Below, one piece after another: positions 46,484-60,880 of a stretch of 64,000 nt of DNA; the stretch's first letter is position 1; every line of letters begins with the position of its first letter. The DNA is from an uncultured Bacteroidota bacterium (lineage in GTDB: Bacteria > Bacteroidota > Bacteroidia > Flavobacteriales > Flavobacteriaceae). The stretch is taken from positions 35,208-99,207 of the forward strand of contig CACCLB010000007.1 of NCBI GenBank assembly GCA_902546725.1. Reading direction: 5' to 3'. The position numbers were made by a program, and so were the translations under genes. The notes beneath the pieces were generated by a model. That model had not been told where the DNA came from and did not search any database. It was given only the letters and a program-made list of their open reading frames with translations.

Positions 46484-47455
46484 CTATTGTGACCAAGATG
46501 TAGGCTTTCTGTCCCAACGATGGGTTTTGAGTTTAGCATAAAGTTCAGTAACCATGGGTTTACCATCAATGCAATTGATATTTGCAATTACATTTTTTTG
46601 TTTTCGCATGCCGGGAATGATTGTGCCTACAGATTTATTTTCTAAAATAAACCTCAGAGCCACAGCTGCCATGTCAGTGTCTTTTGGAATTAGTGGTCTG
46701 AGTAGGTCCGCTCTGTCTGCACTGGCATTAAGATTCTCGGGAACAAAATAGGTTCCCCTCCAATCGCCTTCTGGGAAAGTGGTCTCTCGGGTAATGTTAC
46801 CTGTAAGTGTACCTTCATCAAATGGAACGCGGGCTATTACAGCTATGTCGTTAGCATCACAATAGGGAAACAAACGATCTTCAGGAGCTTGATCAAAAAT
46901 ATTGTATATCACTTGAACAGCGTCAATAAGACCGGTTTCTAGGGCGACTATTCCATTTTCGGGTTCCCAGCGATTCATACTGATTCCCATGGCTGCGATT
47001 TTGCCTTCTTTTTTTAAATCCTCTACCGTACGTTGCCACTCTTCTTCCGGAGTCCATCCATCATCCCAGGTATGAAATTGCATCAAGTCTATCTGTTCCC
47101 GTCCAATGTTTTTTAGTGTTTTTTCGGTATATGCTCTGATATGAGCAGCTGGATAGGATTCGGAAAAAGTATAGTGCGGTTTTGCTGGCCACTTAAAGTT
47201 TTTGGGTGGGAGTTTACTCGCAGTGTAGAGTTTTTTATCTGGATGGTTTTGTAGTAATTTCCCTAGGAGGCGTTCACTATGTCCCTCTCCATAGCCCCAT
47301 GCAGTATCAAAGAAATTCACCCCTTTTTCTACCGCTAAATTTAGGGATTCCATGGATTGGATATCATCAGACTCTTTCCAACCTCCCATTCCCCACATAC
47401 CATAGCCTATTTCACTGAGTTGCCAATTTGTTCTTCCAAATCTTCTGTAAATCAT
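46484..47455 (-). CDS. aldo/keto reductase
   Basis: AKR pattern GYGMWGMGGW...FFDTAWGYGEGHSE... Confidence 0.88.
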   Translation of the reverse strand: MIYRRFGRTNWQLSEIGYGMWGMGGWKESDDIQSMESLNLAVEKGVNFFDTAWGYGEGHSERLLGKLLQNHPDKKLYTASKLPPKNFKWPAKPHYTFSESYPAAHIRAYTEKTLKNIGREQIDLMQFHTWDDGWTPEEEWQRTVEDLKKEGKIAAMGISMNRWEPENGIVALETGLIDAVQVIYNIFDQAPEDRLFPYCDANDIAVIARVPFDEGTLTGNITRETTFPEGDWRGTYFVPENLNASADRADLLRPLIPKDTDMAAVALRFILENKSVGTIIPGMRKQKNVIANINCIDGKPMVTELYAKLKTHRWDRKPTSWSQ

Positions 47456-47459
47456 AAGT

Positions 47460-48383
47460 TTATTTGTTTAAAATCGAATTTAGCCAATTTTCTGCATTTT
47501 TACTCCAGATGCTATGTGTACCAGTTCTCCCTAAACCGTAACCGTGTCCACCGTCAGCAAAAGCATGCATCTCCGCTGCTACGGAAAAAGCCTTTAGCTG
47601 GTTTAAGTATTCAAAACTGTTTTCAACTGGAACTGCCAAATCATCTATTGAGTGAATTAAGAGGGCGGGAGGGGTGTTTTTGTCAACTTGGAGTTCATTT
47701 GAAAAATAATCCACTTCCTTTTGGGAAGCAGATTCACCTAACAAGTTGTTTCTCGACCCCCCATGAGTAATATTTTCTTGAAACGAAATCACGGGATAGA
47801 TGAGCATGGAAAAGTCAGGACGAGCTGAAACTTCAGTCTCATGCTCGTAAACCTTAGCATCGTAATGTGTCGATAGTGAAGCTGCCAAATGTCCACCCGC
47901 AGAAAAACCCATTACCCCAATTTGATTAGGATTGACACCCCATTTTTTAGCATTTTTGCGAATAGTACGCAGTGCTTTTTGTGCATCCTGAAGTGGTCCT
48001 ACACTTTTATCAGTCATAATGCGATCGTCAGGCAGACGGTATTTTAAAACAAAGGCCGAGATACCCAAACCATTGAGCCATTTAGCAACTTGATAACCTT
48101 CATGATCGATAGCAAGTATTTTATAACCTCCTCCAGGGCAAATGAGAACTGCAGCGCCGTTGGACTTCTCTTTTGGAGCTGGATAAGCTTTTAAGCTTGG
48201 GGCAACCACCTGGTGAATTCTAAGGACATCATCTGGTTGATTTCCACCGCTGGCGTATTCTTCCACTTCAGAAGAAACAATCTGACCAGGAATCCCATTT
48301 TCCCATAAGGGAAACTCCTCTTGGGCAGTCAGTGAGTTAATATTTAAAAGGATTACAATCAGGATAAATAGTTTAGAATTCAT
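47460..48383 (-). CDS. secreted alpha/beta hydrolase (esterase/lipase; candidate carbohydrate acetylesterase)
   Basis: A signal peptide, nucleophile elbow GFSAGGHLA, and DD/H near the C-terminus. The ATG at 48383 is preferred over the TTG at 48413. Confidence 0.8.
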   Translation of the reverse strand: MNSKLFILIVILLNINSLTAQEEFPLWENGIPGQIVSSEVEEYASGGNQPDDVLRIHQVVAPSLKAYPAPKEKSNGAAVLICPGGGYKILAIDHEGYQVAKWLNGLGISAFVLKYRLPDDRIMTDKSVGPLQDAQKALRTIRKNAKKWGVNPNQIGVMGFSAGGHLAASLSTHYDAKVYEHETEVSARPDFSMLIYPVISFQENITHGGSRNNLLGESASQKEVDYFSNELQVDKNTPPALLIHSIDDLAVPVENSFEYLNQLKAFSVAAEMHAFADGGHGYGLGRTGTHSIWSKNAENWLNSILNK

Positions 48384-48393
48384 AACAGTAAGT

Positions 48394-49731
48394 TTAATCT
48401 GTACCTTGGGCAAGCTCCAAAGCAGTAGTAGTTAAATGATATTTAGTCAGCATGTTGGTAATTTCCCAATTAGGGATTTTTTGTTTTTTATAGAACTCAA
48501 TATAGCGTCGAGTAACCTCAGCAAAGTGGGCTTCGTGTCCTTCCCTTAACTCCATAGGGATGCTTACTTCCCATCGATTGGCTTTTGATACAAGGGCTAT
48601 ACCAGGATAGGTATTTTTTAAGGAATCGACAGCTTTTTGAAGAGCCATAGTGTCAAACCCTTCCTTTGGGTTTAAATAAAGGGTAGGTGTATAATTTTCT
48701 TTAGCCGTCTGAAGTATTTCTAAATCGGCTTTACTTCCTCTCATAATAGAGTAGTGGGTATCTCCTGCTCCTTGTGGAGCTTTAAAATTCCATATAACTT
48801 CAACCTTGGCATGATGGCCTTTTAAGGTGTAGTTCATGGCACCATTAGCGTAAACTTGAAGGGTGTCGTTTTCGACATAAGGAATAAGATATTCGGGATA
48901 GGAATTCAAGCCTGTGACCTGTTTAAAATCCTTTTTAGACATGGGTGTGGCCAAGCGCTCTGCCCTTAGTAGCGTTATATCCTCCTTTTGAATTGCTTCT
49001 TGTGGAAAGCACTCCCAAAATGTAAGATCTACTAAATGCGAACTGACATCAACTAAACCCTCACCTTGTAGTTTGACATCAAAAAACCAAGCCGGTCTGA
49101 TTAAGGGCTTTCCAGAGACCGCTTTAGCATAGTGATGAATGGATGACTTGACTATGGCAGGTTCTTCCAAATTTCCTTGTATTAATGTTCCAAATACATT
49201 TCTTAATTGGGAAAGTTCTTTTTGAAGTACGGTAGTAATTTCAGAGCGTTCGGTCATGATATCATAAAGCATCAATTTTTTTTCCTTTGCCAACTGAAAT
49301 GCCTGTTCCAAGGCTTGATATTCATTTGGATCAATAACCATAGGCTTGTCTGCGTAAACATGAAACCCGTGTTCAATGGCATTCAGGATGTATTCAGTTT
49401 TCTTTTGATTATTTCCCGAGAGCATGACAACTCCAGCTTTTTCTTTATTCAAAAGTTGCTCAAAAAAATCATCACCTTCATAGACCGTGGATTTCCATGT
49501 AGTTGGACCTTCCTCACGTTGATTATAGGCCTCAATTCGAGCGAGATGTAAATCTAAATCGCCACCTTTTGGAGCGTAAATATGAACTTCACTATCAATC
49601 TCAGGATACATGGTTTTTTGGACCAAAGCCGCGTGAAAGTGCCCAGGATCAAGGGTAATCCATTGGATTTTATCACTCTGCTGACCGCATCCCACAGCTA
49701 AAATAAGTAGGAGTACTAATCGAATTTTCAT
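48394..49731 (-). CDS. lipoprotein, putative oxidoreductase (Oxidoreduct_C-like family)
   Basis: A lipobox (LAVGCGQ) and N-terminal LDPGHFHAAL, typical of the 'putative oxidoreductase C-terminal domain' proteins. The family was recognised by eye. Confidence 0.55.
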   Translation of the reverse strand: MKIRLVLLLILAVGCGQQSDKIQWITLDPGHFHAALVQKTMYPEIDSEVHIYAPKGGDLDLHLARIEAYNQREEGPTTWKSTVYEGDDFFEQLLNKEKAGVVMLSGNNQKKTEYILNAIEHGFHVYADKPMVIDPNEYQALEQAFQLAKEKKLMLYDIMTERSEITTVLQKELSQLRNVFGTLIQGNLEEPAIVKSSIHHYAKAVSGKPLIRPAWFFDVKLQGEGLVDVSSHLVDLTFWECFPQEAIQKEDITLLRAERLATPMSKKDFKQVTGLNSYPEYLIPYVENDTLQVYANGAMNYTLKGHHAKVEVIWNFKAPQGAGDTHYSIMRGSKADLEILQTAKENYTPTLYLNPKEGFDTMALQKAVDSLKNTYPGIALVSKANRWEVSIPMELREGHEAHFAEVTRRYIEFYKKQKIPNWEITNMLTKYHLTTTALELAQGTD

Positions 49732-49736
49732 CAGTT

Positions 49737-51119
49737 CTAGTATTGAATGTTAGTAGTTCCGTAAGGTGCTCTTTGAGAACGTCTTAACATGGCATTAGCT
49801 TCAGCATCATTGATGAAACGTTCAGTCATAGGATCCCAATTCAATTGACGTGGTAGTTTCATCGCAATATGACTGATGAGACAAACCGTACACGCGCGAT
49901 GACCAATTTCTACGGGTGAGATTGGCTCTTCACCACTTTGGATACAATCCAACCAATTGCCGTGTTGCTCTTTACTTTCGTAAAGGTGAATCTCATTTGG
50001 TCCAATTACAGATTCTAAAATTTTAGGATCACTAGCATCTAAAGACTTTACTCCATTTTGTTCTGGAATGGGATCTGAAGGTGTTGCTCTATAGGCTCCT
50101 CTTGTAACAAAGATCCATCCGTCTTCACCTTCATAACGAATTCCATTGGGGAACCCTCCACTGGTCAGCATAGTTATCCCATTTTGATATTCTGCTTTAA
50201 CCATAAAATCTCCGTGGACATCCCAACTTCCGTATTTAGGGAATTCAGCAATGGCTTCAACACTTTTTGGTCCTGTGTACTCCGTATTCATTCCCCAAGC
50301 AGCTGAATCAAAGTGATGCTGTCCCCAACCTGTAATCATTCCTGCTCCGAATTGCTCTTTACGAAGCCAACCTGGACGACTGTATCCCTCCTTTGGATGT
50401 ACAAGCATTTCTGAGTATTCCATTTCAGGTGTTGAACCGAGCCAAGCATCAAAGTTTAAGGCAGCTGGAACTGCTTCTATTTGTGCAATTGGCCCTGGAG
50501 GATCGCCAGGAAGCCCAACTTTAACTGTATGTAATTTACCTATTCTTCCGTTTCGAACAAGTTCAGCTGCATATCGGAATTGGGGGGAGGAGCGTTGTTG
50601 AGTTCCAACCTGAAGGATGATTCCCTGGTCTTGTACTATATTACTGAGTGTTCTTCCTTCCTCAACAGTGAGTGAGGTGGGCTTTTGCAGATACACATGT
50701 TTTTTAGCAAGTGCAGCCTCGATTGCTGGTTGTGCATGCCAATGATCAGGTGTACTTATGATTACTGCATCGATATCCTTGTGTGCTATCATCTCTTGAT
50801 AGTTGTCAAACATCTTAGTGTCCACCTTTTTACCTTTCTCTTGGTAATAGTTATCCACCAAATTTTTTCCATCCTTGGTGCGGTTCTGATCCACATCACA
50901 AACAGCTACCATTTGAGCTACTTCGTGCTGCATGGTGCCTGGCATATCGTGAGCACGTGCTATGCGTCCGCAACCAATCTGTCCTATTTGGATACGGTTG
51001 CTAGGGGCATTTTTCCCAAAGACACTTGAAGGAACTATGCTGGGTATTGCCGCAGTAGCTAAAGCAGTTGCAGAGGTCTTTTTAATAAAAGAACGTCGGT
51101 TTATATTGTTTTTTTTCAT
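49737..51119 (-). CDS. TAT-exported Gfo/Idh/MocA family oxidoreductase
   Basis: A twin-arginine signal (NRRSFIKKTSATALATAA) and a Rossmann motif (IGQIGCGRIA). Confidence 0.85.
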   Translation of the reverse strand: MKKNNINRRSFIKKTSATALATAAIPSIVPSSVFGKNAPSNRIQIGQIGCGRIARAHDMPGTMQHEVAQMVAVCDVDQNRTKDGKNLVDNYYQEKGKKVDTKMFDNYQEMIAHKDIDAVIISTPDHWHAQPAIEAALAKKHVYLQKPTSLTVEEGRTLSNIVQDQGIILQVGTQQRSSPQFRYAAELVRNGRIGKLHTVKVGLPGDPPGPIAQIEAVPAALNFDAWLGSTPEMEYSEMLVHPKEGYSRPGWLRKEQFGAGMITGWGQHHFDSAAWGMNTEYTGPKSVEAIAEFPKYGSWDVHGDFMVKAEYQNGITMLTSGGFPNGIRYEGEDGWIFVTRGAYRATPSDPIPEQNGVKSLDASDPKILESVIGPNEIHLYESKEQHGNWLDCIQSGEEPISPVEIGHRACTVCLISHIAMKLPRQLNWDPMTERFINDAEANAMLRRSQRAPYGTTNIQY

Positions 51120-51122
51120 GAG

Positions 51123-52319
51123 TTAAGGTTTTAATTGATATTGTAATGGTTTTGCAAATTGATTCCAAGCTTGTTCAGCCGATGCAACTTCCATTTTTCC
51201 ATCGTAAACAATCAGTTGGTATTTAAGAGTATATGTTTTTCCTGGTTCAAATGTCCAATCCGTTGTTTTAGTAGTGGCGAAATTGACAAAGAGGTCTCCT
51301 CTCCGGTATTGATCCTCTGGCCAAACTCTTAAGGGTTCTGGATGATTGTAATTTTCAGGATGTGAGAGCATTAGCGCGCCTCCATGCCCATCGTTTAATT
51401 TTCCATCAACGATACACCAACGGGCTGTACTCCCGTCTGCATTTTTTCGAGTATTCCCCTCAGAACTCAAGACCCTGCTGTTTTGGTTGTCCCATTCTTC
51501 TGTGGTACGCCATCCAAATCCACCATAGCGGTATTGGATAATTTTAAAGGGTTGATCAGTAGCACATTCATATTGTATGGTAATGTCCATTAAATATTGA
51601 CTTTGATTCAAGGGAAAGACCTTAATATTTTGGATTTCATTTAGGGCTAATTTATCGGCATCATTCTTTAAAACAATATGTTCGTGCAGTACTTCAAATT
51701 CACTAAATACAGGACCCGTATTTTTCTTTAACATCTCAGCAAAGCGAACCGTCCCTTGCTTTTTGTACAAGTTCCAAAAATCTAAGGTATCTCCTTCAAA
51801 CAGAGTATGTGTCCAAGGATTCCAAATACCGTAATGGTGATAGTGATCTTCCGGTTGAATTCGAGTTAATCGTTTTCCTCTAGGGGTATTTACTGGATGT
51901 AAATAGCCACTTCTCTGATAATTTTCACTCACTCCTTTTGGTACTCCTTTAATTGCCATTTGGTATCCAATAATCTTTCTTTCGTTTTGGTAAATTTCAA
52001 GTTGCCCCTCATTTTCAGAAATCTTAATTGCTGAATGAGTAATGGGAGCTTGCTTTTCGATAAAATAGCTCGCATCAGGAGTCAGTGTCTTCCACAGAAT
52101 TTTATTTTCGTTTCTCTGATAAGGTATTTCTACTTTTTCAGAGGCAGTACTTGCCATAAGTCGAAACGGACTGTTTAATAAATCTTTGTCGAGTTCAATA
52201 CTCGCTATGGCATTGGAACTGTATTTTTCTTTATTAATGGCTTGAAGTTCAATCTCTGTCTTGGCGCAGGAGAGGATTCCAAATCCCATTAAGAGTAAAA
52301 TAACTAACTGTTGTCTCAT
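51123..52319 (-). CDS. PmoA-like / DUF6807 family lipoprotein
   Basis: A lipobox (ILSCAK) and a His-rich segment (EDHYHHYGIWNPWTH). The family was recognised by eye. Confidence 0.5.
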   Translation of the reverse strand: MRQQLVILLLMGFGILSCAKTEIELQAINKEKYSSNAIASIELDKDLLNSPFRLMASTASEKVEIPYQRNENKILWKTLTPDASYFIEKQAPITHSAIKISENEGQLEIYQNERKIIGYQMAIKGVPKGVSENYQRSGYLHPVNTPRGKRLTRIQPEDHYHHYGIWNPWTHTLFEGDTLDFWNLYKKQGTVRFAEMLKKNTGPVFSEFEVLHEHIVLKNDADKLALNEIQNIKVFPLNQSQYLMDITIQYECATDQPFKIIQYRYGGFGWRTTEEWDNQNSRVLSSEGNTRKNADGSTARWCIVDGKLNDGHGGALMLSHPENYNHPEPLRVWPEDQYRRGDLFVNFATTKTTDWTFEPGKTYTLKYQLIVYDGKMEVASAEQAWNQFAKPLQYQLKP

Positions 52320-53335
52320 GATAGTTCTAATTTAATAATTTGTTTTTTTTCAGAGGCTTTGTAAATGGCTTCAATGAGTGCTACCGATTTTCTTGCTTCT
52401 TTGGCGTTCACTAAGGGTTCTTTATCTTCTAAAACAGACTTAATAAAGTCGTCAATGACTGCCTGATGCAATTCAATGCTGTTTAATTTAGCAGAACCAC
52501 TAGTCAGGTTGTTTCGCAGATTTGCCGTTGGTTTCCAGCCTGGGAGAGAACAGGAGCGTATCAGTCCCCCTTCAAAGACCATATTTCCTTTCGTTCCATA
52601 TACTGTGATGGACTCTGGGTAACCTGGATATAAACAGGTGCCAGCGCTAAGTGTTCCCAAAGCACCCCTTTGAAAAGTTAAATGTGCTACAGCCAAATCT
52701 TCTCCTTCAATATCGTGTGTTTTGGTCTCTACTTGAGCTCCTACACTCCTTACAGCTCCCATCAAATCTATCAAAAGATCAAGCGGATGTATGCTTTGAT
52801 TTATTAATGCTGCTCCACCGTCTAGAGCAATGGTTCCTCTCCAGTTGTTGCTTTTGTAATAGTTGTCATCAAGGTACCAATTGACTTGAGTATTTACCAG
52901 TAAAACTTCACCGAGTTTAACTGATTGTATCGTTTTTTTAAATGCGATATAGTTGGGATTCATTCTATTCTGAAAAACTACACCTAAGCTTATTTTTTGC
53001 CCATTGAGTTTGTCAATTATTGAATCAATTTTAGAGAGTGTGGTTTCTAAAGGTTTTTCGCTTAGTATATGTTTTTTAGCTTCTATTGCTTGTAAAATAC
53101 TTTTACCATGAAGTCCGCTCTCATTGCAGATGCAAACTGCATCAAGTGCAGTTTGACTGTAAAATATCGCAGAATCTGTAAAAACCTCAATGTTGAATTT
53201 TTCTGCTAGTGATTTGGCATTGTTTTTTGAGCGAGTTAATATACCTGCTAAGTGAGCATTGGATTGTGCTTCAATACAAGCTGCATGCACTTCAGCAATA
53301 GCTCCACTTGCGACAATCCCAATTCCTAAATTCAT
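52316..53335 (-). CDS. cytoplasmic Gfo/Idh/MocA family oxidoreductase
   Basis: Rossmann N-terminus (GIGIVASGAIAEVHA) with no signal peptide. It has an ATGA overlap with the next gene. Confidence 0.85.
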   Translation of the reverse strand: MNLGIGIVASGAIAEVHAACIEAQSNAHLAGILTRSKNNAKSLAEKFNIEVFTDSAIFYSQTALDAVCICNESGLHGKSILQAIEAKKHILSEKPLETTLSKIDSIIDKLNGQKISLGVVFQNRMNPNYIAFKKTIQSVKLGEVLLVNTQVNWYLDDNYYKSNNWRGTIALDGGAALINQSIHPLDLLIDLMGAVRSVGAQVETKTHDIEGEDLAVAHLTFQRGALGTLSAGTCLYPGYPESITVYGTKGNMVFEGGLIRSCSLPGWKPTANLRNNLTSGSAKLNSIELHQAVIDDFIKSVLEDKEPLVNAKEARKSVALIEAIYKASEKKQIIKLELS

Positions 53336-53338
53336 TTT

Positions 53339-54964
53339 CTAAAGTGACACTCCTCGTTTCCAAGGGATAAAATCGTTTTGTTTTAATTGAACTGCTTTTG
53401 GTATTTCTTCCCCACTAGCTACCTTGATTATGTATTCCAATAAGGCATCACCAACTTCTTCAAGGCTTTGTCTTTCAGTGATTATTGTTCCACAGTCAAA
53501 ATCAATGATATCACTCATCTTTTTTGTTAGAATACTGTTTGAACTTACTTTAATAACAGGGGTAATAGGGTTACCTGTAGGGGTTCCTAAGCCTGTGGTG
53601 AACAAAATAATATTTGCTCCAGATCCAGCAAGAGCTGTGGTACTCTCCACATCGTTTCCAGGGGTACATAATAAAGAGACTCCGGGAATGGTGGCATATT
53701 CAGTATAATCCAGCACATTACTGATTGGTGCATTCCCTGCTTTTTTTGCAGCTCCAGCAGATTTCATAGCATCAGTTATTAATCCATCTTTTATATTACC
53801 TGGTGAAGGGTTCATATCAAAACCTGAACCTACGCTGGCTGCAGCAAGTTCATATTGTTGCATTAAATTTAAAAACTTAATTGCTAAGGGTTCGCTTGTA
53901 CAACGGTTGACTAACTCTTGCTCAACTCCTGTCAATTCTGGGAATTCACCTAAAATTGACTTACCACCGAGGTCAGAAAGTATATCCGACACCTGCCCCA
54001 AAGTTGGATTGGATGTAATACCAGAAAATCCATCAGAGCCACCACATTCGAGACCTATGGTGAGTTTGGAAAGTGGAGCGGGAGATCTTTTTATTTCATT
54101 TGCTTTTTTAATTTCTTCAAAAGAGTTTTTAATGATTTTAGATAAAAAGGCATCAACTGTTCCCTCTGTTTGTTGGTCGTAAATCAGCACAGGTTTTTCT
54201 TTTCCCGACTGAAGGTTGGACAAGGCTTCCTTAAAAATATCGATTTCAAGATTCTGACAGCCTAAACTTAAGACCGTAGCCCCTGCAACATTTGGATTAT
54301 TGACATAACCCGCTAATAGTCTAGCCAAGGACTGGGCGTCTTGGCGTGTTCCACCACACCCTCCTTGATGCGTTAGAAATCGCACTTTGATATTGTCGTA
54401 ATCGTTGGACTTTTTTGAAGCTTTGGAAGCTGAATTCTCTTTTACTAGTTCACCATTTACAAGCTGACTGAGCAATTCCTGTAAAGGTTCTTTTTCTGGA
54501 GGATTGAATTCTTTTTCAAAAATAGTTTTAAGGGTTTCAATATTTCTATTTTCACAAAATACCAGTGGGAAAAATAGCCAAATATTATCTGTTCCCACCT
54601 GACCATCAGGACGATGATATCCCATAAAAAACCGTTCTTCCCATTTTTTAGAGTCAGGGGGTGTCCATTCCCAAGCAGCTGTTTTACCTTTTACCTCCTG
54701 AGTTTTGTGTTTTATATTATCTGTGGTTAAAAGTCCACCTTGGGGTATGGATTTTGTAGCTTCTCCAACGAGCACTCCGTACATATATATTGAATCTTGC
54801 TCAGTAAAAGCCTCACAAGCAAACTTGTGTTTGAGTGGAATAGTCTCTTCAAGTTTAAATGAAGCCCCATCCAGCTGAATTTGGTACCCTTTACTAATAT
54901 TGTCTAAAGCAACAGCTACATTGTCTTTAGGGTTAATTTTTAAAAATGGATTTCTAGTAGTCAT
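53339..54964 (-). CDS. uxaA: altronate dehydratase (UxaA family)
   Basis: SAF N-domain (INPKDNVAVAL) and the UxaA C-domain. The ATG at 54964 is preferred over the track start at 54991. Confidence 0.9.
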   Translation of the reverse strand: MTTRNPFLKINPKDNVAVALDNISKGYQIQLDGASFKLEETIPLKHKFACEAFTEQDSIYMYGVLVGEATKSIPQGGLLTTDNIKHKTQEVKGKTAAWEWTPPDSKKWEERFFMGYHRPDGQVGTDNIWLFFPLVFCENRNIETLKTIFEKEFNPPEKEPLQELLSQLVNGELVKENSASKASKKSNDYDNIKVRFLTHQGGCGGTRQDAQSLARLLAGYVNNPNVAGATVLSLGCQNLEIDIFKEALSNLQSGKEKPVLIYDQQTEGTVDAFLSKIIKNSFEEIKKANEIKRSPAPLSKLTIGLECGGSDGFSGITSNPTLGQVSDILSDLGGKSILGEFPELTGVEQELVNRCTSEPLAIKFLNLMQQYELAAASVGSGFDMNPSPGNIKDGLITDAMKSAGAAKKAGNAPISNVLDYTEYATIPGVSLLCTPGNDVESTTALAGSGANIILFTTGLGTPTGNPITPVIKVSSNSILTKKMSDIIDFDCGTIITERQSLEEVGDALLEYIIKVASGEEIPKAVQLKQNDFIPWKRGVSL

Positions 54965-56408
54965 ATTTGTTAATGTAACTATTAAATGCACTTTCGATAT
55001 TTCCTGTGGCTAAAAAATCTAAAATATCCTCCAGTTGCATTGCTAAATTTGGAATTTGGGTAAGGTCTTGATCCCAGAACTCTTTCTTGGAAAGTACTCT
55101 GGATACTACAGCTTTGGAATTATTTTTTTTCCAAAGACTTTCAAATTCTTCTACAACCTTTTTATCGTCTTGAACTGGTAGTTCTGATCCGTTCCAATTC
55201 CCTTTGTAAAACCTCAAAAGAGAGCCAAAGGAAAACACAAGATGCGGAGGTAGTAGTATGTTTTTTTCTTGATATACCAATAAACTAGGTAAGACCCTTA
55301 CCTTAAATTTAGAGATTGAATTGAGGGCTATACTGGCGAGATAATGTTTAATAAAAGGGTTTTTAAATCGATCGAAAACAGCTTCGGTAAATTGATGCAG
55401 GCTAGCACTATCCATATCCAAAGTTGGAGCGACTTCATTTCTAATCGCATCTTCTAAAAAGGATTTGGTGAATGAAGAGGTGAATATATCACTTACCGTT
55501 TGGTGTCCGTAAAGAATGGATAAAGGAACCAATGCAGTATGTGCACCGTTTAAAATTCTCACTTTTTGAGTTCTATAAGATTGTAAATCCTTTACAATTT
55601 TAATGTCCAAGTAAATTTGATCTACACTGAGTTTTTCTTTAAGACGCTCATCACCTTCGATTACCCATAAAAAGAAAGGTTCTGCGGTAACTAATAGTGC
55701 ATCTTTATATGCCAATTGATTTTCGTAAAAACTGAGGTTCTCTTTTGGATAACCCGGTACAATGCGATCTACTAAGCTGTTGCAGAAGGTGATTGCATTT
55801 TGAATCCATTCTTTAAATTGCCCCTCTAGCTCCCATAAATCGACATACTGTAATATTATTTTTTTTAAAGTAGTGGCATTGTAGTTGATCAATTCGCAAG
55901 GTATGATGTAAAGCCCTGCATTGGAATTAGCCTCAAAATGAGTAAAGCGTTCCCAGAGCCAGCGCGTTAATTTTGCAGGATAACTTTTAGGAGGAGTGGC
56001 GTCAAATTGATCGGTAGGATCAAATACTATACCTGCTTCGGTGGTATTGGAAAAAATAAATTCCAATTCAGGAATTTTGGCAAGCTCTAAGAAGGAGTTG
56101 AAATCCTCGTAAGGATTGTTGGTTGCCACAATGTTTTCAATCAGTATTTTTTCTTGTACTTCCTTGCCTTTTTGAATGCCGTTTAAAAATAAGGTGTAAG
56201 CTCCCCCTTGTCGATCAAGTTCTGAGATCAATCCATTTGCTATGGGTTGAACTACAGCAATACCTCCATTATAATTAGTCTTTTGATTGAGTTGATGAAT
56301 GACATCTCCGACAAAGGCGCGTAAAAAATTACCTTCACCAAATTGAACTATTTTAATGGGGTGATTACTTTTACTAAAAAGCGGTTTTTTATGGCTAGAG
56401 GTATTCAT
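54954..56408 (-). CDS. uxaB: tagaturonate reductase (altronate oxidoreductase)
   Basis: Long-chain mannitol dehydrogenase family (IVQFGEGNFLRAF). ATG at 56408. Confidence 0.88.
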   Translation of the reverse strand: MNTSSHKKPLFSKSNHPIKIVQFGEGNFLRAFVGDVIHQLNQKTNYNGGIAVVQPIANGLISELDRQGGAYTLFLNGIQKGKEVQEKILIENIVATNNPYEDFNSFLELAKIPELEFIFSNTTEAGIVFDPTDQFDATPPKSYPAKLTRWLWERFTHFEANSNAGLYIIPCELINYNATTLKKIILQYVDLWELEGQFKEWIQNAITFCNSLVDRIVPGYPKENLSFYENQLAYKDALLVTAEPFFLWVIEGDERLKEKLSVDQIYLDIKIVKDLQSYRTQKVRILNGAHTALVPLSILYGHQTVSDIFTSSFTKSFLEDAIRNEVAPTLDMDSASLHQFTEAVFDRFKNPFIKHYLASIALNSISKFKVRVLPSLLVYQEKNILLPPHLVFSFGSLLRFYKGNWNGSELPVQDDKKVVEEFESLWKKNNSKAVVSRVLSKKEFWDQDLTQIPNLAMQLEDILDFLATGNIESAFNSYINKYDY

Positions 56409-56420
56409 CAAAGCGGTGTA

Positions 56421-57716
56421 TTAAAATCCAAATTTATGAGGCAGCCACAAAGTAATTTGAGGGAAAAAGGTAATGAGTAATAAGGCTATTATCATCGCTA
56501 TAAATAGGGGTAAAAGAGGCTTAATTACTCGTTCTATACTTGTTTTAGCTATACCGATTCCAACGAAGAGAACAGAGCCTACAGGTGGAGTACACAATCC
56601 TATACAAAGGTTGAGTACCATAATGATCCCAAATTGTATAGGGTCTATACCTAAGGACTTGACAACGGGGAGAAAAATCGGTGTAAAAATCAATACCGCA
56701 GGGGTCATATCCATAAATATTCCAACAAAAAGCAGCAATAAGTTGATGATGATGAGGATGACGACTTTATTGTCACTGATGCTCAACAATACATCACTGA
56801 GGTTTTGGGGAATATTTTCATAGGACATGATCCATGACATACTCATAGATGCTGCGATTAAAAGCATGACAACAGCACTAGTTTTGGATGATTCCAATAA
56901 AATTTTCGGCAAGTCTTTTACTCGAATTTCTTTATACGCAAATCCCAAAACTAATGTATAGAGTACTGCAACAGCAGATGCTTCAGTAGCTGTAAAGTAA
57001 CCTGCAACAATTCCTCCAATAACGATAAACAGCAGCAGTAAACTTGGGAAAGCAATTATAAATGTTTTAAGCACTTGTGAAAGGCTACTTCTTTTAAAGG
57101 TTGGATAGCCTTTTCTTTTGGCCCATATAGCCGCTACTAGCATGAGAAAAAAAACAGTCAATATTCCTGGGATGTATCCTGCAAGGAATAAGGCTGCTAT
57201 GGAAACACCACCACTAGCCAATGAATAAACTATAAGCACATTACTTGGGGGAATGACCAATCCTATGGTTGCTGAAGTGATATTGACTGCAGCTCCGTAC
57301 TCTTTATCGTAGCCCTCTTTTTCCATTTCTGGGCCGAGTATACTCCCCATAGCAGAAGCTGATGCCATGGCTGAACCTGCAATAGCCCCCATAAGCATGG
57401 CAGAGATAATATTGATCAATGCAAGACCACCTGGTAGAGCACCTACTATAGTTTTGGCAAAGCTGATTAAACGATCGGCGATGCCCCCATGGGTCATCAG
57501 TTGCCCTGAAAGGACAAAGAAGGGTATCGCAAGTAGCGCAAAGCTGTCGAGACCTGTTCCCATTCGCTGGGCGATTGTTGTTACAGCAGCCAAACTAGGG
57601 ATGGAAATCAATATGGTTAAAAGTGAAGAGATCGCGATACTCCATGCTACTGGAGTACCAATTGATATAAAAAAGATAAAACTAAGTACGAGTACTATTA
57701 CTGGTAATAAATCCAT
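56421..57716 (-). CDS. dctM: TRAP transporter large permease subunit
   Basis: 431 aa polytopic DctM-type protein. Confidence 0.92.
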   Translation of the reverse strand: MDLLPVIVLVLSFIFFISIGTPVAWSIAISSLLTILISIPSLAAVTTIAQRMGTGLDSFALLAIPFFVLSGQLMTHGGIADRLISFAKTIVGALPGGLALINIISAMLMGAIAGSAMASASAMGSILGPEMEKEGYDKEYGAAVNITSATIGLVIPPSNVLIVYSLASGGVSIAALFLAGYIPGILTVFFLMLVAAIWAKRKGYPTFKRSSLSQVLKTFIIAFPSLLLLFIVIGGIVAGYFTATEASAVAVLYTLVLGFAYKEIRVKDLPKILLESSKTSAVVMLLIAASMSMSWIMSYENIPQNLSDVLLSISDNKVVILIIINLLLLFVGIFMDMTPAVLIFTPIFLPVVKSLGIDPIQFGIIMVLNLCIGLCTPPVGSVLFVGIGIAKTSIERVIKPLLPLFIAMIIALLLITFFPQITLWLPHKFGF

Positions 57717-57722
57717 AAATCT

Positions 57723-58181
57723 CTATTTCTCTTTATGAGTGAGTTTGTAAAAAATAATTAAAAGTCCACTGAGAGGGATAACCCCATAAACAACCGCTAA
57801 TGGAATTTTTAACGAAGGCGAAAACTGTTCTAATTTAGTTGTGATATAAACCAATCGACTTCCTCCTACAACCATTCCAAAAAAGGCAAAGCTGAGAACA
57901 GCAACAGAAATAAATTTAGAGATTAGTTTTTGTTTTGAAGCCGAAACCTTTTTAGCAAAAAAATCAATGGCTACATGTTCATTTTTACCGGCAACATAGG
58001 CTGCTCCAAGGATACCTAACCAGATCATTAAATAGCGTGCCAGCTCATCGGTAAAGGAGCTGGGTGTAGCTGTAAAAAAACGGGTAAAAACCTGCCACAA
58101 TACATTGATTACCATGATACCTAAGATGGCAATCAAAGCCCATTCAATTATTTTATCTATGGATGCTCTAATTTTTTTCAT
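57723..58181 (-). CDS. dctQ: TRAP transporter small permease subunit
   Basis: 4-TM DctQ-type protein. ATG at 58181; the track's TTG is at 58196. Confidence 0.88.
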   Translation of the reverse strand: MKKIRASIDKIIEWALIAILGIMVINVLWQVFTRFFTATPSSFTDELARYLMIWLGILGAAYVAGKNEHVAIDFFAKKVSASKQKLISKFISVAVLSFAFFGMVVGGSRLVYITTKLEQFSPSLKIPLAVVYGVIPLSGLLIIFYKLTHKEK

Positions 58182-59148
58182 TTCGGATACGGTCAATTAA
58201 TTCAGCAATTTCTGGATCTTCTCTAAAGGACTCATACATGGGTAGAGTGGCTTCTTGAAAGGCTTCTTTTTCTGGGTAGCTCACTTCAACTCCTGCGTCA
58301 ATCACGGCTTGCAAGGATTCATTTTCAGACTCAATCCACAACTCCCGTTGGTAAGGAACTGAAAGGTCAATGGCTTTTTGCAACCATTGTTGCTCTTGTG
58401 TGCTCAATCGATTCCACAGATGAGTACTGACTAATAAAATGTCTGGTATCATAGTGTGTTCGTCGATAATATAGTATTTACAGACCTCATAATGTCGTGA
58501 CAAATAAAAACTAGGGGGATTGTTTTCTGCTCCATCAACAACACCTTGTTGGATAGCAGTATATAATTCTCCCCAAGAAATTGGGGTAGGGGAGCCTCCT
58601 AATTGCTTAACCATTTCAAAGGCTGAAGCACTTTCTTGAACTCTGATTTTAAGTCCTTTAAGATCATCTGGATTTGTTACCGGGCGTTCGCGAGTATAAA
58701 AACTCCGACTGCCAGAATCGTAAAAACCGATTCCTTTGAGCCAAAAGTCATCACCTTCACTTAAAATTTCTTTTCCTATGGGTCCGTCCAACACCTTGAA
58801 CAAATGCTCTTTGCTGTCAAAGAGAAACGGAAGTCCAAAGATTCGGAGTTTTGGCGCAAAGTTTTCCATAACAGCCCCAGATACTTTTGCCATATCTAAA
58901 CTTCCAATTTGAAGTAATTCCAAACACTCTCTCTCGCTTCCCAATTGCTGATTGGGATAGATTTGAATCCGCATTTTGCCTTCAGAAATTTCGTTTAAAT
59001 ACGCATCGGCTTTTAGCATGGCCTGATGAACAGAATGGGTTACGTCTAAGCCGTGTCCGAGACGAATAATCCTCTTATTAGATACTGTATTGCAGCCCAT
59101 AAAGGCGATGCCAAAAAAAACGAATAGTCCTATTAATTTGTGTTTCAT
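58168..59148 (-). CDS. dctP: TRAP transporter substrate-binding protein
   Basis: DctP family with a lipoprotein-type signal (FMGC). Confidence 0.9.
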   Translation of the reverse strand: MKHKLIGLFVFFGIAFMGCNTVSNKRIIRLGHGLDVTHSVHQAMLKADAYLNEISEGKMRIQIYPNQQLGSERECLELLQIGSLDMAKVSGAVMENFAPKLRIFGLPFLFDSKEHLFKVLDGPIGKEILSEGDDFWLKGIGFYDSGSRSFYTRERPVTNPDDLKGLKIRVQESASAFEMVKQLGGSPTPISWGELYTAIQQGVVDGAENNPPSFYLSRHYEVCKYYIIDEHTMIPDILLVSTHLWNRLSTQEQQWLQKAIDLSVPYQRELWIESENESLQAVIDAGVEVSYPEKEAFQEATLPMYESFREDPEIAELIDRIRNEKN

Positions 59149-59819
59149 TGGCTCTGTTTTAAAGTTTGAATCAGGGCCAGTATTTTTTTAATTGTATTTG
59201 AAATCTGATCGTAGTCTTGATTTTTAACCAGTTCTTTTGAAATCAGTTTTGAGCCCAAACCAACACAACTAACCCCAGCATCAAACCAAGCCTTTAAATT
59301 TTCTTTTTCTGTTGTGACTCCTCCGGTAGGCATTATACTTGTCCAAGGCTGTGGACCTTTAATTGCCTTGACAAATTCCGGACCGTAGATATTACCTGGA
59401 AACAGTTTGACAATTTCAGCCCCCATCTCCTCAGCTTTTGCAATTTCAGTCAATGAGCCACAGCCAGGAGACCACAACACTTTTCTTCTATTACAAACTA
59501 TAGCGATATCCTCTCTAAAAACAGGGGTAACGATAAAGTTTGCTCCATTCATTAAATAGTGACTGGCAGAAGCTGCGTCGGTCACAGAGCCTACACCGAT
59601 TATCATACCGGGTAAAGATTCATTTACGAACCGTATGAGTTCTCTAAAAACTTCATGAGCAAAATCACCTCTATGTGTGAATTCTAAAAGCCGTGCACCT
59701 CCTTGGTAACAGGCTTGAACTATATTTTTTGAAATTTCAATATCAGGATCATAAAACAAAGGAATCATGCCGCTATTGTGCATTTCCGTGATGACCTGAT
59801 GTCTTGTATATTGTGCCAT
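59145..59819 (-). CDS. eda: 2-dehydro-3-deoxyphosphogluconate / 4-hydroxy-2-oxoglutarate aldolase
   Basis: KDPG aldolase family (EFTHRGD..., KLFPG, GGV). Confidence 0.88.
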   Translation of the reverse strand: MAQYTRHQVITEMHNSGMIPLFYDPDIEISKNIVQACYQGGARLLEFTHRGDFAHEVFRELIRFVNESLPGMIIGVGSVTDAASASHYLMNGANFIVTPVFREDIAIVCNRRKVLWSPGCGSLTEIAKAEEMGAEIVKLFPGNIYGPEFVKAIKGPQPWTSIMPTGGVTTEKENLKAWFDAGVSCVGLGSKLISKELVKNQDYDQISNTIKKILALIQTLKQSQ

Positions 59820-59827
59820 AATCTTTA

Positions 59828-60868
59828 TTATCGAGCGACACGCCCTGAGGCATCTCCACTCATTAGTTTTTCAACTTCTTCTACTGTAACTAAATTCGCA
59901 TCTCCTTTAATTGTATGCTTTAAGCAGGAAGCCGCAACTGCAAAATTGAGCGCTTGCTGATTGTCTTCAGGAAAAGCAATTAGGCCATAAATCAACCCTC
60001 CCATGAAGGAATCACCTCCTCCAACTCTATCCACAATATGGGTAATTTGGTATTGTGGACTTTCGTACATTTTTTTTCCGTCATAAAGCACTCCAGCCCA
60101 TGTATTATGGGAGGCAGAAATAGAACCTCTAAGAGTAGTAATGACCTTTTGAGCTTTTGGAAATTTTTTCATCATTTGCTTGCAAACGGATTTAAACGCC
60201 TCAGCTTTAACTTCATGGCCTTGTTTGGTGATATTGAGATTTTTCGGTTTGATTCCAAAATGCTTTTCTGCATCCTCTTCATTTCCTAAGATAATATCAC
60301 AGTAGGAGGTCAGTTTTGTCATGATGGCTTCACGATCACCTCCGTAATTCCAAAGTTTAGCTCTGTAGTTTAAATCTGTTGAAATCGTTATTCCCATTTC
60401 GCTTGCCAGTTTAACTGCTTCAAGACAAGCATCGGCTGCACCTTGTGATATAGCAGGTGTAATTCCAGTCCAGTGAAACCATGAAGTATCCTTAAAAATT
60501 GTTTTCCAGTCAACCATACCGGGTTTAATTTCTGCCATAGCAGAATGCGCACGATCATATATCACCTTACTTCCTCTAGAAACTGCACCAGTCTCAAGAA
60601 AGTAAATACCCAATCGATCTCCGCCACGAATAATGTGGTTGGTGTCAACACCTCTTTTTCGCATTTCCATTAGCGCACAGTCTCCAATATCATTATTTGG
60701 AAGGCGACTGACAAAGCTCGAAGCCACACCGTAATTTGCTAGAGAAACTGCGACATTAGATTCGCCCCCGCCATAGACTAGGTCGAACGCATTGGTCTGA
60801 GAGAACCTCAGAAACCCTGGAGGAGAAAGTCGCAACATAATTTCTCCAAAAGTGACTACTTGACTCAT
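59828..60868 (-). CDS. kdgK: 2-dehydro-3-deoxygluconokinase (PfkB family)
   Basis: PfkB motifs (GGGESNVAVSLA, DRVGGGDSF). Confidence 0.88.
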   Translation of the reverse strand: MSQVVTFGEIMLRLSPPGFLRFSQTNAFDLVYGGGESNVAVSLANYGVASSFVSRLPNNDIGDCALMEMRKRGVDTNHIIRGGDRLGIYFLETGAVSRGSKVIYDRAHSAMAEIKPGMVDWKTIFKDTSWFHWTGITPAISQGAADACLEAVKLASEMGITISTDLNYRAKLWNYGGDREAIMTKLTSYCDIILGNEEDAEKHFGIKPKNLNITKQGHEVKAEAFKSVCKQMMKKFPKAQKVITTLRGSISASHNTWAGVLYDGKKMYESPQYQITHIVDRVGGGDSFMGGLIYGLIAFPEDNQQALNFAVAASCLKHTIKGDANLVTVEEVEKLMSGDASGRVAR

Positions 60869-60880
60869 AAAGTTTTCAAT

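Follow-up and report, generated by a model that had tools for sequence, protein, structure and literature searches.

A 64,000-nucleotide stretch of DNA from a marine member of Flavobacteriaceae (the window) was analysed, and three adjoining genes within it were found to form a conserved unit: a DUF6807 protein (G2), a Tat-exported enzyme of the Gfo/Idh/MocA (GFO) family (G3) and a PF16490 lipoprotein (G4), in this order. In this organism the trio follows a gene for a cytoplasmic GFO enzyme (G1), and all four genes lie inside the uronic-acid (hexuronate) operon. By analogy with the 3-keto-glycoside pathway BT2156–BT2160 of Bacteroides thetaiotaomicron, we propose, giving the idea an even chance, that G2–G3–G4 may be a self-contained periplasmic ‘oxidise, eliminate, hydrate, reduce’ module for uronic-acid glycosides, with lyase/hydratase parts not homologous to those of the known pathway.

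Organization of the locus and conservation of the trio

G1–G4 are four consecutive ORFs on the minus strand, which occupy exactly the interval 48394–53335 given in the preliminary description. They lie close together, with a 4-nt overlap between G1 and G2 and gaps of 3 nt (G2–G3) and 5 nt (G3–G4). The preliminary description had treated them as a quartet; its four family assignments were upheld by Pfam HMMs and its quoted motifs (ILSC, HYHHYGIWNPWTH, NRRSFIKK and VGC) are all present in the sequence, while the conserved unit proved to be the trio, with G1 limited to the marine clade and missing exactly where uxaA/uxaB are missing. Related loci were evaluated if their downstream flank was 3.2 kb or longer; among the 64 that qualified, a G3-type gene came directly after DUF6807 in 48, a PF16490 gene followed in 45, and both followed in 41. 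This arrangement, far beyond chance, was found in Bacteroidota, Sedimentisphaerales and Balneolaceae, and the synteny of both partners with DUF6807 spans 42–92% protein identity. The same DUF6807 subtype occurs in about 270 species genomes, and the DUF6807 family as a whole, when clustered at 50% identity, gives about 1,600 clusters.

About a dozen related loci have a ThuA-family protein within the trio or fused with one of its proteins, as in the DUF6807–ThuA fusion of locus L010, and the ThuA and cupin partners in related loci carry signal peptides. Since unrelated genes can share operons, G1–G4 could have unrelated functions and only be transcribed together with the hexuronate genes; we consider this very improbable, given that the ordered trio recurs across dozens of genomes, in three phylum-level groups and in quite different neighbourhoods, and that natural fusions such as DUF6807–ThuA exist.

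Properties of the four proteins

The preliminary description had placed one of the four proteins in the cytoplasm and three outside it, and this prediction agrees with the signal motifs and their conservation in orthologues. G3 (460 aa; 49737..51119, minus strand; PF01408 and PF19051) contains the twin-arginine motif NRRSFIKK, the canonical loop GCGRIA, the motif QKP (Q-K146-P) and invariant D75/D77 after β2, thus combining the twin-arginine signal and the intact NAD-binding Rossmann domain expected of BT2158/AL3 enzymes. Its score with the NCBIfam TAT_signal model was 17.0 bits (cut-off 16.7), and the RR motif was detected in 52 of 53 G3-type proteins. The top PDB match of G3 by both sequence and fold was the Alistipes glucoside-3-dehydrogenase AL3 (8tdf/8tdh; phmmer E 1.2e-19; Foldseek E 2e-21, TM 0.65–0.69); the glucose–fructose oxidoreductase (GFOR) of Zymomonas mobilis was also among the matches, at a weaker level. 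The best NCBIfam match was BT_2158_fam (NF058561), yet the score of 127.4 bits, over model positions 1–264 of 487, is far below the equivalog cut-off of 750. Because of this low score and an identity to AL3 of 18–20% across the structural alignment, the C3 regiochemistry of G3 is tentative; by analogy, the C3-OH would be the ring hydroxyl most likely to be oxidised.

G2 (398 aa; 51123..52319, minus strand) is a lipoprotein with an N-terminal Ig-like domain followed by a mutarotase-like sandwich, and carries the lipobox ILSC and the segment HYHHYGIWNPWTH. It matched PF14100 (DUF6807, formerly ‘PmoA’) at E 7.6e-64 and 216 bits (cut-off 27) over model positions 3–270 of 270. Its orthologues always have a signal peptide and are lipidated in the marine clade only. 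The AF2 model (pLDDT 86) has just two helices, that of the signal and one at the C-terminus, and is otherwise all-β. Foldseek matched it with PL26 lyase, LacZ domain 5, GalM and OpgG/D, so that the modelled fold is a galactose-mutarotase-like supersandwich of the sugar-binding type; no PDB relative was found by sequence or by profile. We also considered G2 as the particulate methane monooxygenase subunit PmoA, which is a polytopic integral membrane protein belonging to the copper membrane monooxygenases, and rejected this identity on the basis of the all-β model and the mutarotase-like matches. Of the earlier label ‘PmoA-like/DUF6807’, the second half therefore stands and the first is a legacy name only. 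Residues H159, H161, D180, W182, N183, R271, W301, P321 and N323 (G2 numbering) are invariant across the DUF6807 family, and H162, D245 and H320 are nearly so. The His and Asp residues may form a putative, possibly metal-dependent site on the sugar-binding sandwich, making G2 a candidate non-redox enzyme (lyase, hydratase or isomerase). The earlier statement that DUF6807 lacks an established function still holds in the literature searched, in which we found no paper giving a function to DUF6807 or PF16490.

G4 (445 aa; 48394..49731, minus strand) belongs to PF16490 (Oxidoreduct_C; E 7.4e-114, 381 bits), with a partial PF01408 match limited to model positions 53–116. By its VGC lipobox it is of the Sec/lipoprotein export type; a crude regular expression detected a lipobox-like signal in 35 of 47 PF16490 proteins. 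Residues 20–442 matched the PDB entry 4oo3 (‘hypothetical protein’) at E 1.8e-148, a structural-genomics structure for which no function or literature was found. At the position of the dinucleotide loop, G4 has the invariant sequence DPGHFHA (from D28) instead of GxGxxG, and therefore lacks the canonical GxGxxG/A loop with an acidic residue after β2 of functional GFO enzymes. The catalytic Lys of the (E/D)KP motif and the DxxxH-type motif are retained, as D128-K129-P130 and D228…H232, both invariant in 22 orthologues.

G1 (339 aa; 52316..53335, minus strand; PF01408, PF02894 and PF22725) showed no signal peptide. Its nearest solved relatives are the WlbA UDP-GlcNAcA 3-dehydrogenases (3q2k and 3q2i; E 6e-35). 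The model of the BT2159/AL4 cytosolic disaccharide 3-dehydrogenase (NF058563) gave 28 bits against a cut-off of 650, and the best NCBIfam match, IolG-like at 130 bits, was also below its cut-off. G1 is a candidate cytoplasmic keto-sugar reductase/dehydrogenase.

Neighbouring genes in the window

Directly upstream of G1 are uxaA (altronate dehydratase; PF20629, PF04295 and PF08666) and uxaB (tagaturonate reductase; NF002969, 615 bits, above the cut-off), identified by HMMs at 53339..56411 on the minus strand. From their translations, the genes further upstream, also on the minus strand, were read as a TRAP transporter (dctM, dctQ and dctP, the binding protein carrying a lipobox; 56421..59148) and the head of the hexuronate operon (eda, kdgK and uxaC; 59145..62278). 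The order eda, kdgK, uxaC is the same in loci from marine Flavobacteriaceae MAGs, and synteny between the TRAP genes and the trio is kept in L020–L035. Downstream of G4 lies a gene for an exported α/β-hydrolase esterase of the PaeX/AxeA1/BD-FAE type (47460..48413, minus strand; PF20434 BD-FAE), with NCBIfam scores of 259 bits for PaeX and 219 bits for AxeA1, both below the cut-off; its true start is probably the ATG at 48383 (MNSKLF...). In the nearest marine loci (L020, L021 and L023) the same gene likewise follows G4. The co-directional array ends with an aldo/keto reductase (AKR) gene (46484..47455, minus strand; PF00248, E 3.5e-50), a placement shared only with L023.

On the plus strand, a divergent SusC-type gene (62487..64000) is broken into at least three ORFs in the assembly. 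An intact SusD, assigned by Pfam, is encoded past the window end and shares 47% identity with the SusD immediately ahead of the trio in L010; intact SusC/SusD pairs adjoin the orthologous trios in L010, L052, L057 and L089. No SusR-type regulator was found at the trio operon, no ThuA within the window and no cytochrome gene beside the trio.

The neighbours bear on a reading in which a keto-sugar would be the end product of G3. Electrons would pass to some acceptor, or to a second substrate in the manner of Zymomonas GFOR; once imported, the keto-uronate or keto-glycoside would be reduced in the cytoplasm by G1 or the AKR; and G2 and G4 would serve in binding, anchoring or as chaperone-like proteins. 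The GFOR-type ping-pong enzymes and the 3-keto-glycoside dehydrogenases ThuAB/LacABC are precedents, ThuA often accompanies the trio, G1 is similar to the C3 dehydrogenases that act on a uronic nucleotide sugar, an AKR closes the array, and the lipoprotein G4, with its fold of the GFO dimerisation type, could tether G3 to the membrane. Nevertheless, most trio loci have neither G1 nor the AKR, G2 and G4 were read to contain no CxxCH, Fe–S or flavin motifs, and their strictly kept polar residues (His, Asp, Lys and Arg) look catalytic rather than structural. We therefore regard a keto-sugar end point as improbable.

Genomic context of related trio loci

The trio is found with hexuronate catabolism here and in 14 marine loci. 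Elsewhere its uronic-acid neighbours are GH115, GH67, CE15, UxuA, UxaC, GH10, GH43 and GH51, of which GH115, GH67, GH10, CE15 and UxuA mark glucuronoxylan loci, and GH67/GH115 and CE15 share neighbourhoods with it in soil and gut Bacteroidota. Of the 58 trio loci, 30 had such a uronic-acid context within 10 kb, as against 1 of the 11 loci used for comparison, a set that is small and non-independent. The earlier suggestion of a uronate substrate thus gained comparative support. In loci from anaerobic Rikenellaceae, the trio has a B12-methyltransferase-like protein as a neighbour.

The BT2156–2160-type operon is characterized by a TIM-barrel lyase and a lyase/hydratase of DUF1080, a known 3-keto-glycoside lyase/hydratase family; neither is encoded in the trio operon. 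DUF1080 was detected near 4 of the 58 trio loci, and jackhmmer detected no TIM barrel near any of them, indicating that other proteins must supply the lyase steps, if cleavage occurs. A second cluster of the type DUF1080/Tat-GFO/DUF6807 lies about 4 kb past the window end, with the DUF6807 paralogue between the Tat GFO and DUF1080 proteins, and this type recurs in five other Bacteroidota genomes.

The glucuronoxylan context also raises the reading that the trio remodels a uronic-acid sugar without cutting a glycosidic bond. After transient oxidation by G3, G2 and G4 would strip 4-O-methyl-glucuronate of its methyl group by way of enolisation and collapse of a hemiketal, or epimerise or isomerise the uronate, and the product would be reduced and fed to UxaC. 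In many loci GH115/GH67 and CE15 beside the trio already free (methyl)glucuronic acid, making cleavage redundant there; the operon of the trio analysed here serves monomer catabolism and encodes a TRAP transporter and no glycosidase; G2 has a fold like that of mutarotases, which work on free sugars; and the B12-methyltransferase-like neighbour is a weak hint at methyl-ether handling. On the other hand, a C3 ketone gives no direct activation of the loss of a C4 substituent, so that extra steps, for which no precedent was found, would be needed; DUF6807 paralogues accompany DUF1080, which is known for glycoside elimination and hydration; and no support was found in the literature. Overall, remodelling without cleavage appears rather unlikely.

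Proposed mechanism

The families, folds, export signals, synteny and genomic context described above are observations; from them we infer the catalytic activities, the oxidised position, the substrate and the division of steps between G2 and G4. In the glycoside-cleaving module that we propose, G3 would fold in the cytoplasm around tightly bound NAD(P) before Tat export, and in the periplasm would oxidise a ring hydroxyl, most likely the C3-OH, of a uronic-acid-containing glycoside. The keto group would make the neighbouring proton acidic, and G2 and G4, the latter a GFO-like protein in which the canonical dinucleotide loop has been lost and the catalytic Lys and Asp/His are still in place, would perform the non-redox steps of aglycone elimination and rehydration. 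The resulting keto-sugar would re-oxidise the NADH on G3, so that no soluble cofactor would be required. The exported esterase would strip acyl groups that block oxidation or binding, and the freed hexuronate would be imported by the TRAP transporter and catabolised via UxaC, UxaB, UxaA, KdgK and Eda. G1, whose role would correspond to that of BT2159/AL4, would assist as a cytoplasmic keto-sugar reductase/dehydrogenase linked to the uxaBA branch.

Three observations count against glycoside cleavage. AL3/BT2158 refuse galactosides, yet the operon has the galacturonate branch (uxaB/uxaA) only. The location of the trio beside GH67/GH115 α-glucuronidases in glucuronoxylan loci suggests that it may not cleave glucuronosyl residues at all. 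Finally, the source genome (75% complete) gave no matches to GH67, GH115, GH10 or CE15, and its SusC is fragmented.

Comparison with known systems

The nearest known system is the 3-keto-glycoside pathway of BT2156–BT2160 in B. thetaiotaomicron and AL1–AL5 in Alistipes (Liu et al. 2021, PMC8121099; Nasseri et al. 2024, bioRxiv 10.1101/2024.03.25.586180). As in the trio locus, a Tat GFO enzyme is combined with exported non-redox partners, one of them a lipoprotein, and with one cytosolic GFO enzyme; in the known pathway NAD is non-exchanging and the cytosolic GFO enzyme is dispensable in vitro. The partners differ, being DUF6807 and PF16490 in the trio and a xylose-isomerase-like TIM barrel and DUF1080 in the known pathway, as does the context, which is uronic acids and glucuronoxylan for the trio, and glucosides, trehalose and glucosinolates for BT2156–2160/AL1–5. 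The trio operon also lacks the SusR-type regulator of the latter. In that pathway the keto-sugar is a transient intermediate of glycoside cleavage and not the end product. The preliminary description, which did not name this system, had suggested a periplasmic keto-sugar-forming step; the idea of such a step was sound, and by this comparison the keto-sugar would be an intermediate. Its further suggestion, that oligosaccharides are acted on ahead of their import, is no more than a possibility; the SusC gene next to the operon is fragmented in the assembly.

Experimental evidence for an oxidise–eliminate route on α- and β-glucuronides and other C6-anionic sugars comes from the Gram-positive fosmid P2B11 (Nasseri et al. 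2024). Its substrate class is that suggested for the trio by context, although P2B11 encodes two GFO enzymes and two TIM-barrel ‘isomerases’, with neither DUF6807 nor PF16490, and no exported architecture is described for it. Zymomonas GFOR (1ofg and 1h6a) is, like G3, a Tat-exported GFO-family protein, and takes its nicotinamide cofactor to the periplasm; unlike the trio, it acts alone, on monosaccharides at C1/C2, without conserved accessory proteins. ThuAB/LacABC (Ampomah 2013 and Arellano 2010, as related in PMC8121099) are periplasmic and form 3-keto-disaccharides; in that account they are cytochrome-c-dependent, in contrast to the trio with its lack of an adjoining cytochrome gene and of ThuA in the window. 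The GH67/GH115 α-glucuronidases and CE15 glucuronoyl esterases are hydrolases of the classical kind and show no homology to the trio proteins.

Biological implications

Glycoside cleavage by oxidation, elimination, hydration and reduction has been established recently, with TIM-barrel and DUF1080 partners only. The trio locus points to a version of this route built from DUF6807 and PF16490 and consistently located among uronic-acid and glucuronoxylan genes. We tentatively suggest, as something possible rather than probable, that DUF6807 and PF16490 may each represent an enzyme class not recognised before, one a keto-sugar lyase/hydratase and the other a descendant of GFO dehydrogenases that is free of NAD, which together with the Tat dehydrogenase would give glycosidase-independent detachment or de-methylation of (4-O-methyl)glucuronic/galacturonic acid units in xylans and marine uronic-acid glycans. 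The link to an exported dehydrogenase in a uronate operon makes both families testable. If the proposal is true, functions could be assigned to DUF6807, PF16490 and perhaps the ThuA and cupin partners in the periplasm; uronic-acid side chains would be processed in marine and soil Bacteroidota by a route distinct from that of the classical glucuronidases; and CAZyme-based predictions of glycan use, which are now blind to such modules, would be improved.

Organization of the gene run

The four genes follow one another on the minus strand of the window between positions 48394 and 53335, and the family named for each in the preliminary description was confirmed by Pfam. G1 (52316–53335; 339 aa) is a complete, cytoplasmic Gfo/Idh/MocA (GFO) enzyme; G2 (51123–52319; 398 aa) is a DUF6807 lipoprotein (PF14100, E = 7.6e-64); G3 (49737–51119; 460 aa) is a Tat-exported GFO enzyme with a C-terminal domain of the C2 type (PF19051); and G4 (48394–49731; 445 aa) is a PF16490 lipoprotein (E = 7.4e-114) whose Rossmann match is only partial. 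The spacing is −4 nt for G1/G2, 3 nt for G2/G3 and 5 nt for G3/G4. The motifs quoted earlier, ILSC, HYHHYGIWNPWTH, NRRSFIKK and VGC, were all found in the sequence, and G3 scored 17.0 bits against the NCBIfam TAT_signal model (cut-off, 16.7). The host is an uncultured marine Flavobacteriaceae bacterium, represented by a metagenome-assembled genome (MAG) of 1.7 Mb that is 75% complete.

Upstream of G1–G4, the array contains uxaA, uxaB, dctMQP, eda, kdgK and uxaC, and downstream of G4 it contains an exported esterase of the PaeX/AxeA1/BD-FAE type, followed by an aldo/keto reductase. If the esterase began at its listed TTG (window 48383–48413 region), it would share 20 nt with G4; translation from the ATG at 48383 (MNSKLFILIV...) leaves 10 nt between the two genes and provides a normal signal peptide, and this is the likelier start. 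A promoter and terminator scan returned counts at the level of shuffled sequence, by a method ill-suited to Bacteroidota promoters.

Conservation of the G2–G3–G4 trio

Exact-protein look-ups showed that two Jiulongibacter genomes have homologues of G2, G3 and G4 arranged in this order; there, the trio lacks uronate genes and has a NUDIX gene, a cupin gene and a pair of ThuA genes as neighbours. A scan of species-representative genomes (search with closer alignment) detected a G2-type protein in 273, and 80 loci were fetched. Downstream sequence of 3.2 kb or more was available for 64 loci, and in these the DUF6807 gene was directly followed by a G3-type gene in 48, was followed by a PF16490 gene in 45, and had both partners after it in 41. 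Several of the apparent misses were rearrangements, with the order permuted at locus L089 and a SusC/SusD pair inserted at L064 and L088. The hosts belong to many Bacteroidota families, in addition to Sedimentisphaerales (L041, L086) and Balneolaceae (L094). Among the carriers are cultivable organisms such as Hymenobacter qilianensis JCM 19763, Cyclobacterium xiamenense, Saonia flava DSM 29762, a Niabella sp. and Jiulongibacter sediminis. The conserved unit is the trio G2–G3–G4, and we consider it very improbable that G1–G4 are unrelated neighbours.

G1 was confined to a marine Flavobacteriaceae clade, and the three clade members without uxaA/uxaB were also without G1, which places G1 with the galacturonate branch genes and not with the trio. 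Its nearest solved relatives, WlbA enzymes, carry out the C3 oxidation of a uronic nucleotide sugar. The N-terminus of G1 (window 53300–53335) reads VASGAIA, compared with VGSGAIA in the closest orthologues (L020, L027); in the present genome, Ala thus takes the place of the glycine that comes first in the dinucleotide-binding loop.

Two further arrangements were observed near trio genes. A natural DUF6807–ThuA fusion of 682 aa (L010:7256–9304) lies directly after SusC/SusD and ahead of the G3-type and PF16490 genes, with an enolase-superfamily dehydratase and GH67 coming afterwards. In Rikenellaceae/Bacteroidales MAGs, the trio adjoins a 230-aa protein (L062:13743–14435; homologues in L064, L076, L087 and L088) with weak similarity to the B12-dependent methionine synthase activation domain (E = 3.5e-7).

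Export signals and the G3 dehydrogenase

The RR motif was present in 52 of 53 G3 orthologues, and a lipobox in 35 of 47 PF16490 orthologues as counted by a crude regular expression. Every DUF6807 orthologue carried a signal peptide, with a lipobox only in the marine clade, and signal peptides were also seen on the ThuA and cupin proteins that partner the trio at related loci; none of the 12 G1 orthologues had a signal. These conserved export signals indicate that the trio system is predicted to be periplasmic or surface-exposed.

In G3 the GCGRIA loop is canonical, the acidic residues that follow beta-2 are invariant, and a Q-K-P motif is present. Its top PDB match by sequence was 8tdf/8tdh (E = 1.2e-19), annotated as 'Alistipes sp. 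glucoside-3-dehydrogenase AL3', with an alignment extending past the Rossmann domain. The AF2 model of G3 (pLDDT 80.8) also retrieved 8tdf/8tdh first in the fold search (E = 2e-21; TM 0.65–0.69), followed by the sugar C3-dehydrogenases DgpA, KanD2 and WlbA, and also GFOR. The top NCBIfam match, BT_2158_fam ('glycoside 3-dehydrogenase'), scored 127 bits, below the cut-off of 750. Judged from sequence and predicted fold, G3 therefore appears to resemble AL3 and BT2158, the Tat-exported GFO dehydrogenases of the known 3-keto-glycoside systems of Alistipes and Bacteroides thetaiotaomicron, in every testable respect, yet lies outside the BT_2158 equivalog family. A GH109-like single-enzyme glycosidase was also considered for G3 and rejected, the match to 2ixa being weak (E = 6e-7) and that to AL3 much stronger.

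Predicted properties of G2 and G4

No PDB relative of DUF6807 was detected using a single sequence or a 15-sequence profile. The AF2 model of G2 (pLDDT 86) consists of an Ig-like N-domain and a large beta-sandwich, and its top Foldseek matches were PL26 exo-rhamnogalacturonan lyase, LacZ domain 5, galactose mutarotases and OpgG/OpgD (E = 4e-7 to 1e-3; TM 0.3–0.56). The predicted fold is that of a galactose-mutarotase-like supersandwich, which is typical of sugar-binding and sugar-processing domains. A methane oxygenase or PmoA membrane protein was ruled out by this predicted fold. Across 18 DUF6807 sequences (20–56% identity; large multidomain proteins among them), conservation was complete or nearly so at H159, H161, (H162), D180, W182, N183, D245, R271, W301, H320, P321 and N323, a pattern resembling that of an acid-base or metal site. 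Divergent DUF6807 domains within multidomain proteins of 1273–1304 aa (L018:7878–11699, L019:5078–8992) still have the H-x-H, D and H-P-x-N residues. DUF6807 was detected in 8 of 150 sampled complete Bacteroidota genomes, and a single-sequence search of 1.84 billion representatives gave 1,614 clusters at E ≤ 1e-3 and 840 at E ≤ 1e-10. The literature on DUF6807, PF14100 or PmoA-like proteins gave no function, the mentions being as the last DUF number and in one remark on a neighbouring gene.

G4 matched the structural-genomics entry 4oo3 ('hypothetical protein') over residues 20–442 (E = 1.8e-148); nothing relevant was found in the literature on PF16490 or 4OO3. In 22 PF16490 orthologues, an invariant D-P-G-H-F-H-A-A occupies the expected position of the GxGxxG loop and the acidic residue after beta-2 is absent, while the catalytic-type D128-K-P and D228xxxH232 are invariant. 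Since a Sec-exported lipoprotein could not acquire NAD in the cytoplasm, and the dinucleotide loop is rebuilt, G4 is more probably a dehydrogenase-derived non-redox catalyst or partner than a second dehydrogenase. One alternative is that the system is a dehydrogenase with a keto-sugar as its end product, G2 and G4 being non-catalytic partners, which we regard as quite unlikely. A respiratory, cytochrome-linked reading was given low weight, because haem and Fe-S motifs are absent from G2 and G4.

PF16490 was detected in 4 of the 150 sampled Bacteroidota genomes, all four of which also had DUF6807. In one of the four (locus L101), PF16490 follows a G3-type gene within a GH67-SDR-GH115-...-CE4-CE15-GH3 locus, and a second, shorter Tat-signal GFO enzyme (391 aa) fills the usual DUF6807 slot before this pair (L101:4757–8840). 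In another of the four, a lone PF16490 lipoprotein (L100:7447–8829) lies among housekeeping-type genes without a GFO or DUF6807 neighbour, the DUF6807 genes of that genome being on other contigs.

Relation to the known 3-keto pathway

BT2158 and AL3 are Tat-exported, hold a non-exchanging NAD and oxidise glycosides at C3; TIM-barrel and DUF1080 enzymes then catalyse aglycone elimination and glycal rehydration, the resulting 3-keto-sugar probably regenerates the cofactor, and the cytosolic GFO enzyme is dispensable in vitro (Liu et al. 2021, PMC8121099; Nasseri et al. 2024, bioRxiv 10.1101/2024.03.25.586180). P2B11, a Gram-positive variant, cleaves both alpha- and beta-glucuronides (Nasseri et al. 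2024, bioRxiv 10.1101/2024.03.25.586180).

A second cluster, also of exported proteins, was identified approximately 4.4–8.8 kb beyond the window end, past a fragmented SusC, SusD and a LacI gene, and runs to the contig end on the minus strand (L006:6562–10988, equal to G000:C7:103561–107987). Its order is a double DUF1080 protein (464 aa), a Tat-GFO enzyme (451 aa), a DUF6807 lipoprotein (348 aa) and a DUF1080 protein (197 aa), after which comes the LacI-family regulator. Clusters of this type were also present in five other Bacteroidota genomes (L007–L009, L011, L012). The second cluster in the present genome is a direct link of DUF6807 to the 3-keto pathway. Contig C8 opens with a xylose-isomerase-like TIM-barrel gene, which might continue the cluster.

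DUF1080 was a neighbour of the trio at only 4 of 58 loci, and a search of limited sensitivity revealed no TIM barrel close to these 58. Glycoside cleavage by the trio would accordingly require G2, G4 or both, at some loci together with ThuA or a cupin, to supply the elimination and hydration.

Genomic context and candidate substrates

The marine-clade operon uxaC-kdgK-eda-dctPQM-uxaB-uxaA-G1-G2-G3-G4 is kept down to approximately 50% identity (L020–L035), with an esterase joining in the nearest members. Elsewhere, the trio lies within loci of the glucuronoxylan type, with GH115, GH67, GH10, GH43, GH51, GH3, CE15 glucuronoyl esterase, CE4 and esterase–cupin fusions, together with UxuA, SDR, UxaC, LacI/GntR and SusC/SusD. 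Among trio loci of at least 14 kb, a uronic-acid marker was present within 10 kb in 30 of 58 (20 of 48 outside the marine clade), compared with 1 of 11 other DUF6807 or PF16490 loci, a rough comparison given a small and non-independent set. The SusD by the window is 47% identical to the SusD directly preceding the trio in L010. GH115, GH67 and GH10 were not seen in the present genome at its 75% completeness, and no literature tying GH115/GH67 xylan loci to GFO enzymes was found.

The SusC-type gene divergent from uxaC (window 62487–64000 and L006:695–3707) is broken into three or more ORFs (161, 268 and 465 aa), and the adjacent SusD (543 aa) is intact; the split could reflect a pseudogene or MAG assembly errors.

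The coexistence of the trio with GH67/GH115 is the main argument for a different role, in which the trio remodels free or methylated uronate instead of cleaving glycosides; this role seems to us unlikely.

Proposed role of the trio

The pathway type itself is already known, and our literature search did not find the trio architecture with DUF6807 and PF16490 or its association with uronic acids and glucuronoxylan. We give an even chance to the proposal that the trio is a periplasmic, cofactor-self-contained module that would oxidise, eliminate, hydrate and reduce uronic-acid glycosides, its activity, regiochemistry, substrate and complex formation all being putative. In the present organism, such a module would deliver its output to the TRAP transporter and the Uxa pathway.
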